A DNA stretch of 64,000 nucleotides from Candidatus Bathyarchaeota archaeon (GTDB taxonomy: Archaea; Thermoproteota; Bathyarchaeia; Bathyarchaeales; SOJC01): the NCBI GenBank assembly GCA_026014805.1, contig JAOZHR010000016.1, positions 27,283-91,282 of the forward strand. The letters are read 5' to 3'. Position numbers and translations under genes: made by a program. Below, in pieces: positions 25,983-34,125 of the stretch. The notes under the pieces are model-generated. The model saw only the letters and a list, made by a program, of their open reading frames with translations. It ran no database searches and was not told where the DNA came from. How positions within the stretch are numbered: position 1 is the first letter of the stretch; each line of letters starts with the position of its first letter.

Positions 25983-26961
25983 GCGCTAATACAGCCTGAT
26001 TTGCAGGGGTCTCTTCTTTCCACTGATCCAGCAAGCCTTGCAAACCCATCTCCAACGAAATCTTCGGCTCATACCCCAAGCCTTCCCTTACCTTCGCAAT
26101 ATCTGCAAAACTATGCTTCAAATCGCCCACACGTGCTGCTTCATACGTGATTTCCACATGGTTGCCCACAAGCTCCACAAGAGTCTTAGCTAACTCGCTT
26201 ATTCTAACCGATCGTCCATACGCCACATTAAACACCTGACCGCCAGCATCCTTAACGTTTAGAGCCAACCAAACAGCCTCAGCAACATCAAAAACATGAA
26301 CAAAATCCCTCGTCTGCGAACCATCACCATAGACAACCAGAGGCCTGTCAGAAAACAGATTCTCGAAAAACCTAGTTATGACGCCGCTATACATGTCTTC
26401 TCTCCTCTGCCTAGGCCCATACACGTTAAAGGGACGCAACACAACAGTCTCCAACCCATACGAACGCCCAAAAGCCCGACAATAATACTCTGCAGCCAGC
26501 TTAGAAGCAGCATAAGGCGACAAAGGACACACAGGATGCTTCTCATCAACTGGAAAGTAACAGGGCTCACCATAAACGGCACAAGAGGAAACAAACAGAA
26601 ACCTCTGAACGTCGCCGTCCAAGCACGCATTCAACAGATTCAACGTACCCTCCACGTTCGCCCTATTCGTCGAAAGAGGGTGCTCCACCGAAAAGGGAAT
26701 GCTAGTTACAGCGGCTAAGTGGACAACACTATCAGCGTTCTTGACAAGTTTTTCAACAAGCTCACTGTCTTGTATGTCGCCTTTAACAAACTCAACGCTC
26801 CCACCCTCCATGTAACGTTGCAGGTTTTCTAACAGCCCAGTCGACAAATTATCAAGCACACAAACCTTACAGCCCATCATAACAAGCTTGTCAACAACAT
26901 GGCTACCGATGAACCCCGCCCCACCCGTGACAAGAACCCTCAAGTCAACCACTTTTCTCAT
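25927..26961 (-). CDS. NAD-dependent epimerase/dehydratase (UDP-glucose 4-epimerase-like SDR)
   Basis: MRKVVDLRVLVTGGAGFIGSHVVDKL and PYAASKLAAE. The start at 26961 gives an ATGA overlap with the upstream stop. The 415-aa track ORF has a spurious N-extension. Confidence 0.85.
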   Translation of the reverse strand: MRKVVDLRVLVTGGAGFIGSHVVDKLVMMGCKVCVLDNLSTGLLENLQRYMEGGSVEFVKGDIQDSELVEKLVKNADSVVHLAAVTSIPFSVEHPLSTNRANVEGTLNLLNACLDGDVQRFLFVSSCAVYGEPCYFPVDEKHPVCPLSPYAASKLAAEYYCRAFGRSYGLETVVLRPFNVYGPRQRREDMYSGVITRFFENLFSDRPLVVYGDGSQTRDFVHVFDVAEAVWLALNVKDAGGQVFNVAYGRSVRISELAKTLVELVGNHVEITYEAARVGDLKHSFADIAKVREGLGYEPKISLEMGLQGLLDQWKEETPANQAVLAHGFTQLEKTEQGLRSFAS

Positions 26962-28283
26962 CCAAACGGTTTCCCAGCGGCATCGAGAGACTGCCTTCTC
27001 TCCGCACAACTCGAGACAACAAGACAATCCGGCAAAGCTGAACCAGCTACAGCAATGACCCCCGTCTTCGGCGTTCGATTCCACTCCTTTGGCGCCCTGC
27101 AAAGAATCTTTATCAAAGCCCAAGTTGCCAAGAAAACCTGGAACGACCAGTAAGCGTATATAAAAGGAAGCCACAGCAAATCCTTAATTCTTCTCGGCCT
27201 TGTGGTGTACAGCAACGCCAGAGCCCCAGCCACAATTGAACCTGTTAGAAGGCCCCACCCGACCAAAGTTATAGCGAAGACAACCGAACTGTCCAACTGG
27301 TAGAAAACTAAGGGGCCCAGTATGTAGCTTAAAAGCGAAATAATCAGCACAAAAGGTCCCAAAAGCGTTACTTCAGCATCAAAAACTCTTAAACTAGGTC
27401 TCTCCATTAAACGCCCATACTTAAAGGCAACTTCCATAGACCCTCTAAACCACCTAATTCTCTGACGAAACATCTGAACTAAGGTTTCCGGACTCTCCTG
27501 CCACGACTGAACATCACCTGCGTACTTAATTCGATGCCCTTTCTGCGTAAGCCGCGCAGACATCTCCATATCCTCTGAAAGATGCTTCTCACTCCATCCT
27601 CCAAGGCTCTCCAAAACGCTTCTACGAATGAACTGGCAGCTCCCCTTCAAATGAACAAACAAGTTCAAAGTGTCCTTTCCCTTCAGATAACCCTCAAACC
27701 ACACAGCCTCTTCGTAAGACACAAACTTCGTGAGCATGTTAACACCTGAATTCAACGTAAACGTTCTACCTTGAAGAGCAGCAATTGTCTCATCTTGAAA
27801 ATGCTTCGCGGCATTAAGCAAAGCATCTTGCTCTGGCACATTATCTGCGTCAAACACAGCTATTATATCGCCGCTAGAGATTCTCAATGCTCGATTCAAA
27901 GCAGAAGGTTTCCCAGTGGAATCTCCCCCACGGACTATCTTTAACCGCCCACCAAAATCCTTCACATACTTCTCACAAACTTCTAATGTAGCATCAGTTG
28001 AACCATCCTCCACCACGATTACTTCAACTTTTTTCCTTGGATAATTTTGCTTTAAGAGAGCACCTAACAATCGAGGAAGAACAGATTCTTCATTCTTCGC
28101 TGGAATAACAACTGAGAACGTAGGAAGATTCTTCTCGAACACCGCCTTTCGCCCAAAAGATTGCTTCTTAGCTCCATCACGGCGGAAACTTCTAATTCCA
28201 ACTATCAACACGGGCAAGTTGTAAAGCGCCCAAGAATAAACCACGGCAGACAATACAATTAAGAGAACAGTAAACAAACTCAT
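26958..28283 (-). CDS. Processive-type GT2 beta-glycan synthase (NodC/PgaC/cellulose-hyaluronan synthase-like)
   Basis: N-terminal TM helix, then VVIPAKNEE, VVEDGSTD, FDADNV, SEDMEM and QRIRWFRG (QxxRW). Several C-terminal TM helices follow. Confidence 0.8.
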   Translation of the reverse strand: MSLFTVLLIVLSAVVYSWALYNLPVLIVGIRSFRRDGAKKQSFGRKAVFEKNLPTFSVVIPAKNEESVLPRLLGALLKQNYPRKKVEVIVVEDGSTDATLEVCEKYVKDFGGRLKIVRGGDSTGKPSALNRALRISSGDIIAVFDADNVPEQDALLNAAKHFQDETIAALQGRTFTLNSGVNMLTKFVSYEEAVWFEGYLKGKDTLNLFVHLKGSCQFIRRSVLESLGGWSEKHLSEDMEMSARLTQKGHRIKYAGDVQSWQESPETLVQMFRQRIRWFRGSMEVAFKYGRLMERPSLRVFDAEVTLLGPFVLIISLLSYILGPLVFYQLDSSVVFAITLVGWGLLTGSIVAGALALLYTTRPRRIKDLLWLPFIYAYWSFQVFLATWALIKILCRAPKEWNRTPKTGVIAVAGSALPDCLVVSSCAERRQSLDAAGKPFG

Positions 28284-28517
28284 GCCCCTCTATATCGACG
28301 GTTTAAGCTTAAGCATTTTACCTTCAATTTCTGCTAATCCCCTAACCTGCGTACTTCAGAACAAACTATCTTGCAAATGAGCATTGAATATAAATCGCTT
28401 GTGAATCCTTGGTAAAGTTGCCTCTGATTGAAATCCGAATCCAACAGCTCTCACGCAGGCGCACGATCAAAACGGGTTCGCACACAAACTAGCCTGATAG
28501 TCTAACGCGTGCACGCA

Positions 28518-28907
28518 TCATACCCTAAATGAAGACGGCGTATTCATCATGGTCACCGCTAAAAACTGGATAAACTCTTTATTACTCATCCATTCTCTGG
28601 CGGATTTGTTCCCCCACGACTGGGCGATAAGGCTTATTTTTTTAGCGAGTGGTCTACCGACTTCTCTCATCATACGTGCAACATGGCTTTCCAACGCAGT
28701 TAACAGCTTCTTTACAATCGATGTTAGAACCTTTGCCAGCAATGTGCTGCGGACCTTATCCACAACTTTTATGACTGAGTTAATCAGCCCTCGCTCCATT
28801 CCACTTAACGTCTTAAACCACACACGGCGTCTAAACGCCTTAGCCCTCAACATGATTAAACCACATCTATCTAGCGAACCCAGCTTCGAAGTCATTCCAC
28901 AAATCAC
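28518..28907 (-). CDS. Hypothetical basic, helix-rich protein
   Basis: 129-aa ORF. Its GTG start overlaps (GTGA) the stop of the upstream AbrB-like ORF. I recognised no family motif. Confidence 0.5.
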   Translation of the reverse strand: MICGMTSKLGSLDRCGLIMLRAKAFRRRVWFKTLSGMERGLINSVIKVVDKVRSTLLAKVLTSIVKKLLTALESHVARMMREVGRPLAKKISLIAQSWGNKSAREWMSNKEFIQFLAVTMMNTPSSFRV

Positions 28908-29053
28908 CTAACTCTTCTAACCCGACACTCCACCAAGTTGCCTTTCTTTAGTTTCAACGCGTCCCTAACCTCTTTAGGAATAGTTATTCTTCCCTCAACT
29001 CGCACATACACTGTGAACGCTTTTTCTTCTTCGTTGGTCAAGGTTGACGGCAA
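28904..29053 (-). CDS. Small AbrB/SpoVT-type DNA-binding protein (not in the ORF track; under 60 aa)
   Basis: Hand translation from TTG at 29053 gives LPSTLTNEEEKAFTVYVRVEGRITIPKEVRDALKLKKGNLVECRVRRVR(stop). GRITIPKEVRDALKLKKGNLVE is the swapped-hairpin AbrB/MazE/VapB signature. Confidence 0.6.
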   Translation of the reverse strand: MPSTLTNEEEKAFTVYVRVEGRITIPKEVRDALKLKKGNLVECRVRRVR

Positions 29054-29329
29054 CCATGTGTGGCGACGTTTTTCTACAATTTATGTAGATGACTTATAAA
29101 GTTTATTTATAGAACTGAATACTAGAAAAGAACTAAACCTGGTCTAGACATAACACCCACCACAGATGCACGTGTCTATCCAACAGGTAGACCAATTTGA
29201 ACCTAAAACAAACTCACCTTGAATCAAAATAACAGTTTCCATGCTCCATTCAGATTCAGAATCCAAACAAATAGAAAAGCTTTATAGAAATAAAATACAG
29301 AACAAAATCTGATTTGGAGACTGATTAAT
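29054..29329. promoter_or_regulatory. Divergent intergenic region between the AbrB-like and PadR genes, with TATA-like boxes
   Basis: An A/T box CTTATAAAG at 29093-29101 lies about 40-48 nt from the minus-strand TTG start. TTTATAGAAA at 29281-29290 lies about 40-50 nt before the padR TTG, and GGAGA sits 8 nt before that start. A GTCTAGAC palindrome lies near 29143-29150. Confidence 0.3.
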
Positions 29330-29662
29330 TTGGCACAAAAAATAGTGGAAGAATTACGTGGAAGAACAATCAAAAGTTTCTTAGACATACTAATCCTGTC
29401 GCAGCTAAGCGAGGTTACAATGAGCGGGTATGACCTCATAGCCTTAATCCACAAAAAATTCGATTATCTAGTGAGCTCAGGCACAGTTTACTCCACACTG
29501 TATTCGATGGAAAGAAACGGCCTAATCAAAGGATCCTACGATGAACGAAGAAGGATTTACGTGCTAACAAAGAAGGGCATGGAAGACTTACAAAGCATCA
29601 AACGAGCAAATGGAGAAATTAGAAACCTCATAAGAAATATCTTACAACTCAAGACAGCTTAA
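29330..29662 (+). CDS. PadR-family transcriptional regulator
   Basis: Winged-helix signature ILSQLSEVTMSGYDLIALIHKKFDYLVSSGTVYSTLYSMERNGLIKG. Confidence 0.85.
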   Translation: MAQKIVEELRGRTIKSFLDILILSQLSEVTMSGYDLIALIHKKFDYLVSSGTVYSTLYSMERNGLIKGSYDERRRIYVLTKKGMEDLQSIKRANGEIRNLIRNILQLKTA

Positions 29663-29820
29663 AGCCCAGCGCAAGTCACCAACCAAGAAATACTGTTCAA
29701 CGCGTAGATGAAAGCCTGAGCAAACTGATTCCACATACTCACTTCAACTGCAAACGTGGGAAAACACAAAAATTTAACTTCCCAAAGGCTCGATATACAC
29801 CAGCACGAGGAACTAAAGAA

Positions 29821-30216
29821 GTGCACATTGAGAAACTAAGCAAACTCCTCCCCTTCTTAATAGTGGACGGCGCAATAATCATAATCATAATTTTGTCACT
29901 ACAGCTAGACTGGATCGTAAACAATACACTATATTATTACGGGCTTCAATTCAGCTTAGGCTGGGCGAATATTTACTGGACAACCTTTAGAATAACCCTC
30001 GGACTGCTCTGCTTCACACTAGTCGCCACTACTCTAATCGGCTACTTCTCCTACAAAAAATCAAGGAACGAAATAGCAAGAACAGTTTTTGTCTGCAAAT
30101 CTTGCGGAAACGCCTTAACCAAACTCGGCGGCAACATCAGCATGAACGAAGCTTTACCGAAATTCAAAGTTCTGAAAAAATGCCCCTTCTGCGACAAGAA
30201 ATTACTAGAGAAATAA
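29821..30216 (+). CDS. 2-TM membrane protein with a C-terminal zinc ribbon (paralogue A)
   Basis: TM1, then loop DWIVNNTLYYYGLQFSLGWANIYW, then TM2. The C-terminus has CKSCGN..(26)..CPFCDK. Confidence 0.65.
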   Translation: MHIEKLSKLLPFLIVDGAIIIIIILSLQLDWIVNNTLYYYGLQFSLGWANIYWTTFRITLGLLCFTLVATTLIGYFSYKKSRNEIARTVFVCKSCGNALTKLGGNISMNEALPKFKVLKKCPFCDKKLLEK

Positions 30217-30252
30217 ACTGCAAATCGAGCTCGCTTACGAATCAACCGAGAA

Positions 30253-30708
30253 CTAACACTGACTATCAACTACGTCCCGAGGATGCCTCACATCATAGCT
30301 CCTAATCTTAAGCACCTGGGACTCACAATATTGGTCAAGAACCTGTATTTCCACTATATCTTCATGTTGCGCAACCAATTGTTCAGCTGGTGCTTCAATT
30401 CGCTCAACTTGTTGGGTTTCCGGGCGTGGTGAACGTTTGTTTCTAAAAATATAGTAAACCAGCGTGATTGACGCAACTATATTGAACCAAGACAAACCGA
30501 CAATAGCACCTGAGCTGGCCCAGTAGGGCATAGCCCATCGGTAGCTGAATCGTAATCCAAAATCGTACAAAACCCCGTGAACCAGTTGGTCTATCTGCGT
30601 TTGGCTAACCATCACCAAAAAAGAAGCCACAGCCATAACTATCAGAGCCACGACAACTGCAGATAAGTTGATGTTGATTTTCACGAGTGCATCTTCCTGT
30701 ATTTTCAT
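30253..30708 (-). CDS. 2-TM membrane protein (paralogue B, no zinc ribbon)
   Basis: TM1, then loop DQLVHGVLYDFGLRFSYRWAMPYW, then TM2. The C-terminal tail is acidic. Confidence 0.6.
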   Translation of the reverse strand: MKIQEDALVKININLSAVVVALIVMAVASFLVMVSQTQIDQLVHGVLYDFGLRFSYRWAMPYWASSGAIVGLSWFNIVASITLVYYIFRNKRSPRPETQQVERIEAPAEQLVAQHEDIVEIQVLDQYCESQVLKIRSYDVRHPRDVVDSQC

Positions 30709-30780
30709 CGAAGAGAAAAGCCCATAAGCTTTGTGAGCTTAGACTACTGTTCTGAAATCTTCGTTTTCAACACTGATTTC

Positions 30781-31317
30781 TCATTCCGATCTCGAGTTAC
30801 CTGATACTGCAAGTATCGCGTTACAGTAGGGACAAACGTTTACCAGCCTAGGCTTTCCCGATTTGAAATCAAACATACAAAGGGGTTGAGTGAAAACCTT
30901 TCCACACTTATTGCACACCATAGGTATAGCAGCAATTTGGACACCATCATCTTCCCTTACAAGTTTCTTCTCCTCCACAACTTTAGGCGCACTTTTCAAC
31001 CTAGGGGCAGGGGCAGGAGATAGACGAGGCTTAACAGCCTTCGGGGTAGGCACGATTTTACGACCCAGAATCTCATACACTATCGCAAAAACGTTTACGC
31101 ACGCAATGCCGCCCACCAACCCGAGGGCTAACTGCAAAAACATCCAATATGGTATTGCCCATTCGTCGCTGAACTGCAAACCATAGCCATACAGTGAAAC
31201 ATTAACTATCCCATCTATTTCAAAAAGCAATAAAGCTACAGCAATAGCTAACACTGCTCCAATAGCATTAACTACCAGAAGGATTTTTGGATTCCATTGA
31301 AGTTTCATGTGAATCAC
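30781..31317 (-). CDS. 2-TM membrane protein with a C-terminal zinc ribbon (paralogue C)
   Basis: TM1, then loop DGIVNVSLYGYGLQFSDEWAIPYW, then TM2. A Pro/Lys-rich linker precedes CNKCGK..CPYCNA. Confidence 0.65.
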   Translation of the reverse strand: MIHMKLQWNPKILLVVNAIGAVLAIAVALLLFEIDGIVNVSLYGYGLQFSDEWAIPYWMFLQLALGLVGGIACVNVFAIVYEILGRKIVPTPKAVKPRLSPAPAPRLKSAPKVVEEKKLVREDDGVQIAAIPMVCNKCGKVFTQPLCMFDFKSGKPRLVNVCPYCNAILAVSGNSRSE

Positions 31318-31523
31318 TAGTTACTCTGGGGGAAACGATTAAAACGTTATTATCTTGAAATAAGATGCGAAAATTAATAGTGGAAGTCATCTAGATTTCG
31401 AATAAAATCCTCTAAATATACTGGTTATTCCCAGACCATCAGAACATGGTTTTCGAATGCACATACGTCGGAACCTAGGCAGACTTGAAGCGTTTTGACA
31501 CCAAACGTCCCAGAGAAAAGGTC

Positions 31524-32552
31524 TTAGCCGAAAAACACCTCTGCTATTTCATAAAGCTTCAAATCAACAGTCTTTCGCTTACCAACAACATCCTTGAAAG
31601 GAACAGAAACAACCTCATTTCCCTGAAGAGCAACCATCCGCCCAAACCTTCCTTCATGAACAAGGTCGATGGCGGCAATTCCATATCGAGTAGCTAAAAC
31701 TCTGTCAAAAGCTATAGGAGACCCCCCTCGTTGAATATGCCCAAGAACCACAACCCTCGTCTCAACACCCATCCTCTTCTCAATCTCCCTCCCAAGATAA
31801 TAGCCAATACCGCCAAGTCTAGCATGCCCAAACTCGTCCACGCCGCTGCTGTAAACAATCTCTTTACCCCCCTTAGGCTTCGCACCCTCAGCAGCAACAA
31901 TTAAACTAAAGTTTCTACCCCGCTTCTGTCTTCGCCTAATATACCCACACACCTTACCAACATCAAAAGGCTTCTCAGGAATCAAAATAGCATCCGCGCC
32001 CCCAGCAAGCCCAGCCCACAACGCAATCCACCCAGTATGCCTACCCATCACCTCAAGAATTATCACCCGATGATGAGCCTCCGCAGTAGTATGAAGCCTG
32101 TCAAGAGCTTCACACGCAATTGAAACTGCCGTATGAAAACCAAAAGTGTAATCAGTTGCAGCCAAGTCATTATCGATCGTCTTGGGAACACCCACACACG
32201 GAAGCCCCTTCTCATACATCTTATGCGCCACTCCCAAAGTATCATCTCCGCCAATAACAACCACCGCGCCAATCCCATACTTCTCAACGTTCTCCAGAAT
32301 ACGCCGCCACCCATCCTCACGCTTAAAAGGATTAGTCCTCGAAGTCCCCAGAATAGAACCCCCGCGAGGAAGCATCCCTGAAGTTGCCTTCAAATCTAAA
32401 GGAACAAAATCACCGTCAACCAGACCCCGCCACCCATCTTTAATTCCAACAGTTTCATAGCCATGCTCCTGAATTGCCTTCCTAACGACAGCCCTAATTA
32501 CAGCATTAATCCCAGGAGCGTCCCCTCCGCCGCTTAAAACTCCAACCTTCAT
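31524..32552 (-). CDS. pfkA: 6-phosphofructokinase, PfkA family (signature residues suggest the PPi-dependent type)
   Basis: MKVGVLSGGGDAPGINAVIR, IGGDDTLG, VPKTIDNDL and EVMGRHTGW. The ATG at 32552 is preceded by a GGGGGA Shine-Dalgarno-like run. Confidence 0.85.
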   Translation of the reverse strand: MKVGVLSGGGDAPGINAVIRAVVRKAIQEHGYETVGIKDGWRGLVDGDFVPLDLKATSGMLPRGGSILGTSRTNPFKREDGWRRILENVEKYGIGAVVVIGGDDTLGVAHKMYEKGLPCVGVPKTIDNDLAATDYTFGFHTAVSIACEALDRLHTTAEAHHRVIILEVMGRHTGWIALWAGLAGGADAILIPEKPFDVGKVCGYIRRRQKRGRNFSLIVAAEGAKPKGGKEIVYSSGVDEFGHARLGGIGYYLGREIEKRMGVETRVVVLGHIQRGGSPIAFDRVLATRYGIAAIDLVHEGRFGRMVALQGNEVVSVPFKDVVGKRKTVDLKLYEIAEVFFG

Positions 32553-32569
32553 CCACTTTCTTCCCCCTT

Positions 32570-33490
32570 TCACTGCGCCTTACCTGAACTCCCGAACAAC
32601 CTCATCTTACCCTTAACAACCATCTTCATCGCTTCCTTTGCCGGACCCAAAATCTTCCTCGGATCATACTGCTTCGGCGAAGTAGCCAAGACCTCACGAA
32701 CCGCACCAGTAAAAGCCAACCTCAAGTCAGTGTCAATATTAATCTTTGAAACCCCCAAAGAAACAGCCTTCTTAATATGCTCCTCCGGTATCCCCTTAGC
32801 CCCAGCCAATTCTGCCCCATACTTCGTAGCCTTCTCAATTATCCACGAAGGAACACTAGAAGCCCCATGCAAAACCAGCAAAACATCCACCCGCTCCCGA
32901 ATAGCCTTCAACCTTTCAAAATCCAGCTCCGGCTTCCCCTTGAACTTGTAAGCTCCATGCGAAGTACCAATTGCAACCGCCAAAGCATCCACCCCTGTAC
33001 GTTCCACAAAATCTTTGGCCGCATCGGGATCTGTCAGCACCGCATCCTTCTCCTCAACCGTCGACTCCTCCACACCCGCCAGCCTTCCAAGCTCTGCCTC
33101 AACCGCGACTCCCTTCGGATGAGCCAACCCTACAACCGTCTTAGTCACGGCAACGTTCTCTTCAAAACTCAGATGAGACGCATCAATCATCACCGAAGTG
33201 AAACCCACATCAATACACTTAACCACTGTCTCTACATCTTTTCCATGGTCAAGATGTAAGGACATAGATTGGGGAACGGTTCTCGCCGCGGCTTTCACTA
33301 TTGAAGCCAAATATTCTAACCCACCATATTTGATGGCGCTCGGAGTTACCGCGATGATGACTGGCGATTTTTCCTCAACTGTTGCTTCAGTAATAGCTAA
33401 CACTGTTTCAAGGTTGTTTATGTTAAAAGCGCCGACGCCATAACCTCTAGCGGCAGCAACTGACATAATTTCTTTGTTTGTAACAAGCAT
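32570..33490 (-). CDS. fba: Class II fructose-bisphosphate aldolase
   Basis: AARGYGVGAFNINNLE, HLDHG and SHGAYKF. The likely start is the ATG at 33490 (MLVTNKEIM). Confidence 0.85.
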   Translation of the reverse strand: MLVTNKEIMSVAAARGYGVGAFNINNLETVLAITEATVEEKSPVIIAVTPSAIKYGGLEYLASIVKAAARTVPQSMSLHLDHGKDVETVVKCIDVGFTSVMIDASHLSFEENVAVTKTVVGLAHPKGVAVEAELGRLAGVEESTVEEKDAVLTDPDAAKDFVERTGVDALAVAIGTSHGAYKFKGKPELDFERLKAIRERVDVLLVLHGASSVPSWIIEKATKYGAELAGAKGIPEEHIKKAVSLGVSKINIDTDLRLAFTGAVREVLATSPKQYDPRKILGPAKEAMKMVVKGKMRLFGSSGKAQ

Positions 33491-33705
33491 GTTTTCCACA
33501 GAGATACTGTATTGAATTACGCCTATTAAAAACAATAACTAGTGCGCGCGCGTCCTTCCTTCACTTGATCTTCATTGAAAGGCAATAGTAAACCACATAT
33601 GAGACAGATATAATTTATAGAAAAAGTTGATGTACACATTCCTTTGATTGTTTGTCACGAATTTCTTGCCGTAGAGGCTTCTGTCCACATAAGATTTTTA
33701 CGAAG

Positions 33706-34125
33706 TCATTCTACAGTCTCTATTTCCAATTCAACTGTTACAGGTATTGCTTCTTTGAATATCGCTACTACAGGGCAGTTTGCTTCGGTTCTCCTCCAAG
33801 CAGCTTCAAGCAACTGTTTTCTTGCCTTAGCAGAAACGTGAATTTTGAGCTTAACGCTACTTAGTTTTGGCGAGTCTGCGGGCTTTTCGGCTTCTGCTGT
33901 CACTTCGAGGTTTGTAATTTCAATTTCGCTTTGTTTGGCTACGTCTGCAAATATTGTAGCGGCACAGTCCCCCAGCCCCATTATTGCTAGCTCTAACGCT
34001 GTTGGTCCGGTATCCTCACCTCTCTTATCAATCGGTAGATCGCAAACAACGCTGTGAGTCCTAGAGTTGTCAACTATTGTGCGAACATTTTCTATAAGTC
34101 GAGTTCTTGTCACGATTTTTGGCAT
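33706..34125 (-). CDS. OsmC/Ohr-family protein
   Basis: GPTALELAIMGLGDCAATIF and a C-terminal EANCPVVAIF. These are the two conserved Cys contexts of the family. Confidence 0.75.
   Translation of the reverse strand: MPKIVTRTRLIENVRTIVDNSRTHSVVCDLPIDKRGEDTGPTALELAIMGLGDCAATIFADVAKQSEIEITNLEVTAEAEKPADSPKLSSVKLKIHVSAKARKQLLEAAWRRTEANCPVVAIFKEAIPVTVELEIETVE

Follow-up and report, generated by a model that had tools for sequence, protein, structure and literature searches.

Within a 64,000-nt stretch of contig JAOZHR010000016.1 (GCA_026014805.1; Candidatus Bathyarchaeota archaeon), hereafter the window, whose own numbering supplies all coordinates given here, we analyzed three genes for small membrane proteins, A (29821-30216, plus strand, 131 amino acids), B (30253-30708, minus strand, 151 amino acids) and C (30781-31317, minus strand), together with the adjacent padR gene (29330-29662, plus strand, 110 amino acids). 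All four open reading frames were found where a sequence-only reading of this DNA had placed them. The three membrane proteins belong to a transmembrane hairpin family that is almost certainly real and unnamed. Our best overall reading, to which we assign a probability of about 0.5, is that the hairpin anchors these proteins in the membrane in pairs and displays a docking ribbon to the cytoplasm, with a probable link to the cell envelope. The PadR-family winged-helix regulator, which the sequence-only reading had made the organizer of the locus, does not belong to the conserved module and, as comparison with related loci suggests, very probably stands outside the hairpin family system.

Pairwise BLASTP comparisons gave significant E values of 2e-11 (A and C), 7e-14 (A and B) and 1e-14 (B and C), and alignment of the three proteins reproduced the core motif read from the DNA, with D, V, L-Y, G-L, F-S, W-A and Y-W as invariant columns; A, B and C are thus paralogues with one shared core. 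In other genomes, the motif recurs in hundreds of homologues, a recurrence that is, by sequence comparison, far beyond chance. The overall plan is a helical hairpin followed by a linker and a tail that differ among the three: a very short linker and a C4 zinc ribbon in A, an acidic linker and a degenerate half-ribbon in B, and a disordered basic linker and a C4 zinc ribbon in C. The C gene may start at GTG 31317 (178 amino acids) or at ATG 31308 (175 amino acids), the ATG being the start in database homologues.

Hydropathy and the positive-inside rule predicted one topology for A, B and C: an inside N terminus, a first transmembrane helix, an outside segment with 0-2 Lys or Arg residues, a second transmembrane helix and then 5-6 Lys or Arg residues on the inside. 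Since both termini are predicted to be inside, the ribbons are predicted to be cytoplasmic. From an alignment of 96 sequences, C was modeled with AlphaFold2 (mean predicted local distance difference test score, pLDDT, 72.7). The model comprised a helix at residues 7-41, a six-residue turn (GLQFSD, 42-47) and a second helix at 48-85, all at pLDDT 87-95, followed by a disordered linker (90-124) and a small beta ribbon with short strands at 130-160 (pLDDT approximately 70-80). On the strength of the model, conservation and topology, the hairpin module of C was delimited to residues 7-85 (31054-31290, minus strand). The motif D32..V35...L39-Y40..G43-L44.F46..E49-W50-A51.P53-Y54-W55 occupies the outer end of the modeled hairpin, and its consensus, LY.YGL.FS..WA.PYW, is aromatic, highly conserved and predicted to lie at the outer membrane face. 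Because the model has two long helices joined by a turn of six residues, the conserved "loop" is better described as the outer tip of a tight transmembrane hairpin. The extracytoplasmic loop proposed from the sequence is not a free loop.

A word search returned 174 homologues, the first 120 of which included 96 of the C type, and C-type proteins are the founding and most widespread members of the family. Profile searching of 1.84 billion cluster representatives retrieved 687 proteins at E <= 1e-3, each standing for a cluster at 50% identity; 459 of them reached E <= 1e-10. The family was present in 21 of 41 genomes of relatives, in 27 of 301 genomes of a class-level sample and in 11 of 401 genomes of a phylum-level sample; all positive genomes fell within the window's own order (taxonomic families f1, f2, f6 and f9) and carried 3-8 copies each, and the named homologue records were labeled "Candidatus Bathyarchaeota archaeon". 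The hairpin module matched no Pfam, NCBIfam or PADLOC family and had no significant PDB sequence match, and Foldseek searches of the PDB with the hairpin returned generic helical hairpins only, all at E > 1, so that the statement in the sequence-only reading that the family could not be named held throughout these resources. Matches to MotB (E = 0.019) and to somatostatin receptors in the PDB sequence search were discarded as noise from transmembrane composition. One member gave a single below-threshold match to DUF7300 (E = 8e-4; 19.5 bits, cut-off 27), a family that was not among the 25 most often matched across the hairpin family. Literature searches found no description of the hairpin family.

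The window's genome encodes a fourth hairpin paralogue on contig C23 (L013 3949-4599), a 216-amino-acid protein with a B-like core and a long acidic tail. Its gene lies 57 bp upstream of, and on the same strand as, a gene for a rhomboid intramembrane protease (L013 4656-5297; PF01694, E = 1.2e-23), and a gene for a low-molecular-weight phosphotyrosine phosphatase lies on its other side.

The hairpin is used in several protein architectures. Among 146 representatives, 83 combined one module with a ribbon, 46 carried a tandem pair of modules (a long C-terminal domain being present in 29 of them), 16 consisted of one module alone and one had a ribbon but no module; modules with long acidic tails were also found. 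In three genomes (G009, G011 and G021), a C-terminal module is fused to an ATP-binding cassette (ABC) ATPase, in a gene that follows those for an FtsX permease and a second ATPase. Protein P0227 (1117 amino acids) has two N-terminal modules followed by MacB_PCD and FtsX permease domains, and in P0186 (917 amino acids) two modules come after an exosortase/archaeosortase domain (PF09721, E = 2e-31). In G009 (L015 58-4198) and G011 (L014 3818-7994), the ABC fusion is a 716-amino-acid protein encoded in an operon with an FtsX-like permease and an ABC ATPase. It consists of an N-terminal domain of approximately 400 residues of no known type, a second ABC ATPase domain and the C-terminal hairpin module, and looks like a second nucleotide-binding subunit of a MacB/FtsX-type system, unusual in being anchored to the membrane. 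A further architecture of approximately 420-440 amino acids (L016 3298-4539, L035 4364-5629, L036 4377-5645 and L037 4454-5722) joins two tandem hairpins, two more transmembrane helices and a conserved soluble alpha/beta domain of approximately 170 residues. This domain had no Pfam match and resembled H-NOX and V4R-like folds only weakly (Foldseek E approximately 0.04, probability 0.97-0.99); it may bind a small molecule.

The most constrained part of the C-type proteins is the ribbon. As the sequence-only reading had noticed, two of the three paralogues, A and C, end in paired CxxC knuckles, with cysteines 92/95 and 121/124 in A (ribbon at residues 88-127; 30082-30201, plus strand) and 132/135 and 159/162 in C (numbering of the 175-residue protein). 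The pre-strand and C4 ribbon of C cover residues 120-170 (30799-30951, minus strand; DGVQIAAIPMVCNKCGKVFTQPLCMFDFKSGKPRLVNVCPYCNAILAVSG). The knuckles have the spacing of a C4 zinc ribbon, two CxxC motifs approximately 20-30 residues apart, and the four cysteines are invariant in 96 C-type proteins. A fifth cysteine of C is not a zinc ligand, because it is replaced by Val in family f9 and by Ser in three f1 members. Pfam ribbon models matched below threshold (Zn_ribbon_8, E = 0.054; Zn_ribbon_3 in 36 of 147 members, best E 2e-4). The mean column entropy across the 96 C-type proteins was 0.27 bits for the 40-residue ribbon, 1.08 for the tip, 1.8 for the transmembrane helices and 2.76 for the linker; C-type proteins are approximately 50% identical overall (n = 96), yet the ribbon is almost invariant (family f1). 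Conservation of this kind is typically seen where an interaction surface is under tight constraint.

At locus L033 (4715-5197; genome G292, family f6), we found a distant, soluble 160-amino-acid protein with no transmembrane module and a ribbon related to that of the C type (CPSKKCGKVVTEPLKMVDL...VCPYC). It has a second cysteine cluster after the ribbon (CPHYLGYL...ECLTCPETIKC) and is uninformative for the context of the ribbon.

Protein B had been described as carrying an acidic tail instead of a ribbon. A three-subtype alignment showed that the B segment VEIQVLDQYC...SYDVRHPRDVVDSQC matches the ribbon segment VEIAALPMVCNKC...MFDFKSGKPRLVNVCPYC and that B stops at the first cysteine of the second knuckle. 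Since its tail aligns with the C-type ribbon, the "acidic tail" is a degenerate, truncated half-ribbon: B does lack a full ribbon, but its tail is not an unrelated one. The C-terminal peptide of B (30256-30297, minus strand; YDVRHPRDVVDSQC-COOH) is itself invariant, with the D, V, H, P, D, S, Q and C columns of DV.HP..V.DSQC-COOH identical in 17 of 17 B-type proteins. B-type proteins have at most two cysteines, one per knuckle, and the first has been lost in L023-L025. We rejected a zinc site formed by the two cysteines of B itself, as the first is gone in these divergent B-types and four ligands are not available. A shared metal site or disulfide between the fifth cysteine of C and the terminal cysteine of B was not supported: at L043, C has Ser at this position and B still ends in DSQC.

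Gene order links C to B. Exact protein look-up identified four divergent loci in which the genes for class II fructose-bisphosphate aldolase (FBA), phosphofructokinase (PFK), a C-type protein and a B-type protein lie on one strand; in the window, FBA (32570-33535, minus strand) is upstream of PFK and C, and the PfkA-type PFK (31524-32573, minus strand) is directly upstream of C. The C and B genes overlap by 4 nt in L021/L022, and in L023 an insert of 5 kb separates PFK from C. In a tblastn survey of the fetched loci, B followed C in approximately 11 of 16 family-f1 loci and PFK was directly upstream of C in approximately 10 of 16; C followed by B on the same strand was seen in L021/22, L023, L024, L025, L027, L028, L030, L006, L008, L011 and L043. 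Judging from gene order, the conserved, ancestral unit is C then B, usually downstream of PFK and FBA. The synteny with PFK and FBA occurs in family f1 only and not in f9 loci, and a functional linkage to these enzymes was set aside in favor of inherited synteny. An A-type gene, the AbrB-p129 gene pair and a glycosyltransferase gene (the last two described below) are often found near this unit. The A type is represented in the genus of the window and in L027, L028 and L045 (orthologues of 69-90% identity in relatives); in family f9, an A-type gene of 46% identity converges on the C-type gene (L041).

A variant with four transmembrane helices (the hairpin plus two further helices and a Trp-rich segment, 155-176 amino acids) is encoded directly upstream of the C-type gene in L027 (5388-5900, an f1-like contig) and in two f9 genomes (L040 4634-5164 and L042 5081-5548). 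This variant may be an older partner than B.

Features of the proteins also suggest pairing. AlphaFold2 modeled both hairpins of a tandem protein at pLDDT 90-96, and the best fold matches of this model, although weak, were single-chain four-helix bundles (approximately 180 columns; template modeling scores of 0.54-0.59). The residue before the invariant tip Trp was Asp or Glu in 95 of 103 C-type proteins and Arg in 13 of 13 B-type proteins; at the same position among the representatives, ribbon-bearing proteins never had Arg or Lys and ribbon-less proteins had Arg in 10 of 21 cases. On the cytoplasmic side, charges were +2.6 for the linker and +3.7 for the ribbon of C, -2.1 for the linker and -2.2 for the terminal peptide of B, and +5.7 for the ribbon of A. 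That C and B pair is a tentative proposal from these sequence patterns, falling a little short of an even bet.

The link to the envelope comes from the fusions to MacB/FtsX-type ABC components and to an archaeosortase domain, which point to envelope biogenesis, and from gene neighbors. Sugar-nucleotide enzymes are encoded near module genes in family f9, and a 441-amino-acid membrane glycosyltransferase of family 2 (GT2; 26958-28283, minus strand, in the window) is a frequent, non-obligate neighbor of module genes in families f1 and f9. On this basis, an envelope role for the family seems possible, with the odds leaning against it.

We therefore favor, as a working model, a hairpin that would serve as a portable membrane anchor, most likely working in pairs as a four-helix bundle. 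C and B would form a heteromer on flexible linkers, which would show the cytoplasm the almost invariant, basic C4 ribbon of C and the acidic, invariant C-terminal peptide of B; together, ribbon and peptide might form a docking surface for a conserved cytoplasmic partner. A is a third paralogue, with its ribbon held close to the membrane, and the fusions and neighbors would place the family in cell-envelope biogenesis or maintenance. A further step, which we consider quite unlikely, would make the C-B pair a lineage-specific device for membrane-to-cytoplasm coupling: through its invariant aromatic tip, the bundle would sense the condition of the envelope or of the outer membrane leaflet and recruit or release a universally conserved cytoplasmic machine through the nearly invariant C ribbon, gated by the acidic B peptide as an intramolecular-style mimic or competitor, and the hairpin would have found further use as a plug-in regulatory anchor in MacB/FtsX transporters and archaeosortase. 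If this were true, it would represent a new kind of archaeal transmembrane signaling or adaptor module.

Several observations weigh against the favored model. With respect to pairing, C occurs without B in L004, L005, L009/L017, L010 and L045, and the expectation that tandem proteins would join a B-like to a C-like module (a Rosetta-stone arrangement) failed, since both modules are C-like (44 and 45 of 46). In both modules of the tandem proteins, Glu mostly precedes the tip Trp; charge complementarity is therefore no general rule. The fifth cysteine of C does not covary with the terminal cysteine of B (L043). With respect to docking, a ribbon-only search found the C-type ribbon in this hairpin family only and in no other context. 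With respect to the envelope, the evidence consists of fusions from other genomes and of non-obligate neighbors: no fusion to an ABC protein or archaeosortase is encoded in the window's genome, a GT2 orthologue (E <= 1e-40) is missing from 12 module-positive genomes, and four genomes (G028, G031, G039 and G040) have GT2 and no module at the threshold of the genome search.

The occurrence of C without B in some genomes agrees with a different explanation, in which the proteins do not interact and are partly redundant anchors for different cytoplasmic cargo, with the aromatic tip binding a lipid head-group, the S-layer or another envelope component. Tyr, Trp and Phe are abundant in the tip, which also has conserved Asp and Glu, as is typical of interfacial or ligand-contacting segments, and the module is fused to many unrelated cytoplasmic and membrane parts. 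However, the tandem modules in 46 of 146 representatives argue for pairing, and so do the close linkage of the C and B genes, which overlap translationally in L021, and the opposite charges that the two proteins carry in their tips and tails. We consider independent anchors doubtful.

The basic character of the C and A ribbons and linkers raises the question of whether these proteins are membrane-tethered nucleic-acid-binding or regulatory factors, the ribbon binding DNA, RNA or a transcription or translation factor, perhaps after release by intramembrane proteolysis, and so coupling the state of the membrane to gene expression. The extreme conservation of the ribbon would fit a partner that is universal, for example a nucleic acid or a core machine, the fourth paralogue lies directly upstream of the rhomboid protease gene, and a Joint Genome Institute record labels one member "predicted Zn-ribbon and HTH transcriptional regulator". 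This last item is a label only, and Pfam and NCBIfam scans of the module proteins found no helix-turn-helix (HTH) or other DNA-binding domain. Moreover, a single small ribbon is rarely sequence-specific, and the adjacency to the rhomboid gene concerns one ribbon-less paralogue. Many members replace the ribbon with an acidic tail, an ABC ATPase, a permease or an archaeosortase; the common denominator is therefore the anchor and not nucleic-acid binding. We consider this explanation unlikely.

The genes beyond padR bear on a third explanation, that the hairpin proteins are accessory subunits of a membrane GT2 glycan synthase, by analogy with PgaD and PgaC, with hairpins that would dock to the enzyme and regulate or stabilize it together with p129 and AbrB. 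In the window, p129 (28518-28907, minus strand), a basic helical protein of 129 amino acids, is encoded by a gene that overlaps an AbrB/SpoVT-type gene (28904-29053, minus strand; PF04014, 1.4e-06; TIGR01439, 1.3e-07), and in relatives the AbrB-p129 pair is transcribed divergently from the A-type gene. GT2 and p129 lie beside module genes in G000, G001, G009, G017, G018 and G023 and at loci L027, L036 and L042, in varied arrangements and in two taxonomic families, and of the 11 genomes with both the GT2-p129 unit and a module gene, 7 have them within approximately 1.5 kb of each other. Counted for GT2 itself, adjacency to the module was seen in 6 of 9 genomes containing the two. The phyletic pattern speaks against this explanation: as 12 module-positive genomes lack GT2, and four have GT2 without the module, GT2 is a frequent neighbor and not an obligate partner, and the C-B pair is far from any GT2 gene in L021-L025. 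It is p129, rather than the module, that tracks GT2, with p129 immediately adjoining the GT2 orthologue in 12 genomes from several taxonomic families, some of them without the hairpin family (the window's genome and G001, G009, G011, G017, G018, G023, G024, G025, G031, G039 and G040). Obligate partnership with GT2 was accordingly rejected, and a role as GT2 subunits is very unlikely. As an observation apart from the hairpin proteins, p129 looks like a dedicated GT2 partner and not like the toxin of an AbrB toxin-antitoxin pair.

The padR product matched Pfam PF03551 over profile positions 1-74 of 75 (E = 1.3e-10; 41.6 bits, cut-off 27), and NCBIfam PadR models matched it below their equivalog cut-offs. 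We compared positions 26001-34000 of the window by blastn with a genome of the same genus (G001, locus L030) and with metagenome contig L028. The flank at 28516-29224 was 87% identical in G001 and 86% in L028, and the flank at 29726-33542 was 95% and 94% identical. Because both relatives have only approximately 19 bp between these flanks, the intervening segment of approximately 500 bp (29225-29725, plus strand; blastn and junction alignment), which includes all of padR, is extra in this strain. The more distant L027 (approximately 70% DNA identity) and L045 have the AbrB-p129 genes beside the A-type gene and no padR, and no PadR gene was found beside module genes in any relative examined (G001, L021-L025, L027, L028, L045 and other family loci). 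In a PadR protein search of 12 genomes, the best non-self match was 45% identical (G005) and the best match in G001 was 35% identical and on another contig; the two closest PadR homologues (45-48% identity) are on contigs without any module gene. Linkage of the family to PadR across genomes, for which the sequence-only reading had proposed a survey, was thus not found, and PadR does not co-migrate with these genes.

The inserted segment carries a single intact regulator gene and a promoter-like element, inserted precisely into an intergenic region and with no transposase or integrase; a mobile-element signature was rejected, as a repeat scan detected no terminal direct or inverted repeats around the segment. 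The TATA-like element of padR (approximately 29280-29290) is inside the insertion, and that of A (approximately 29768-29777) is downstream of it, within the conserved flank. Judging from these alignments, PadR is a recent or late arrival in this strain, between the AbrB-p129 operon and the A-type gene, and is at most a local add-on regulator of A. The arrangement described earlier, with A following padR on the plus strand and B and C converging on it from the minus strand, is accurate for this strain only, whereas the conserved unit is C then B.

A PadR-controlled envelope-stress module, in which PadR would repress, or be sequestered by, small membrane proteins that sense through an outer loop, is refuted as a conserved system and is highly improbable as an explanation: padR is intact, has its own TATA-like element and precedes A on the same strand by 158 bp, so that regulation of A in this one strain is plausible, and PadR regulators pair with membrane-linked partners elsewhere (PMC11237479), but the padR segment is missing from the same-genus genome and all other family loci, A keeps its own TATA-like element in the conserved flank, the nearest PadR homologues are not beside module genes, a HAAS domain (DUF1700, DUF1129 or DUF1048) was found in 0 of 147 members scanned, and the outer tip is a six-residue turn between helices with no sensor domain. 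The envelope module of the sequence-only reading therefore loses its PadR basis, and an envelope role is left plausible through the fusions and neighbors. Inferring a regulon from this one genome would have been wrong, the eye-catching padR gene being a recent hitch-hiker.

Essentially uncultured, the Bathyarchaeia rank with the most abundant sediment archaea; almost nothing is known of the biology of their cell envelope and membranes. What our analysis adds is an undescribed, sizeable, order-specific hairpin domain family with unusual modularity, the definition of which would improve the annotation of hundreds of "hypothetical" proteins. One of its cytoplasmic ribbons is conserved far above the rest of the protein, a pattern that usually marks an important interaction, and offers a concrete handle for finding the partner.

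Two-helix membrane hairpins usually function as oligomers. The best Foldseek matches of the hairpin, the ATP-synthase c-subunit and the transmembrane hairpin of GtrB/ArnC (E > 1), share with it two long antiparallel transmembrane helices and a short turn, a generic likeness that is not significant; unlike these hairpins, the one described here has an outward-facing turn with a conserved motif and no intramembrane ion-binding carboxylate. PgaD is a small accessory subunit, with two transmembrane helices and no zinc ribbon, of the GT2 synthase PgaC. The hairpin proteins are likewise small, combine two transmembrane helices with a cytoplasmic tail and have a membrane GT2 gene nearby, and are set beside PgaD by description and not by homology; no relationship in sequence or fold was found, and co-occurrence of the module with GT2 is not obligate.

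The HAAS-PadR-like winged helix-turn-helix dyad and PadR-controlled membrane proteins (Psp/Lia envelope-stress partners) have been described in bacteria (PMC11237479); among known combinations of PadR with a membrane partner, the dyad comes nearest. The locus resembles it in having a stand-alone PadR winged-helix regulator gene beside genes for small membrane proteins. However, A, B and C have no HAAS domain (Pfam, E <= 1), HAAS is absent from the 25 families most matched by 147 members (E <= 0.1), and the PadR gene here is a strain-specific insertion that does not co-migrate with partner genes; both defining features of the HAAS-PadR system therefore fail here. The MacB/FtsX (type VII) ABC systems are alike in that the hairpin is fused to such components in relatives (G009, G011 and G021) and in protein P0227, but A, B and C are free-standing in the window, with no adjacent ABC genes, and the hairpin has no detectable similarity to the transmembrane helices of FtsX.

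Membrane-tethered zinc-ribbon proteins are common, and their function is mostly not known. Such generic proteins, represented here by the sub-threshold Zn_ribbon_3, Zn_ribbon_8 and DZR matches, resemble the hairpin proteins in having a cytoplasmic CxxC...CxxC ribbon tethered by one or two transmembrane helices. Unlike them, the proteins described here form a conserved hairpin family of their own, with a near-invariant C-terminal ribbon on a long disordered linker and a half-ribbon in B, and the same hairpin is found in ribbon-less, tandem and fused forms, the fusion partners being ABC and archaeosortase proteins.

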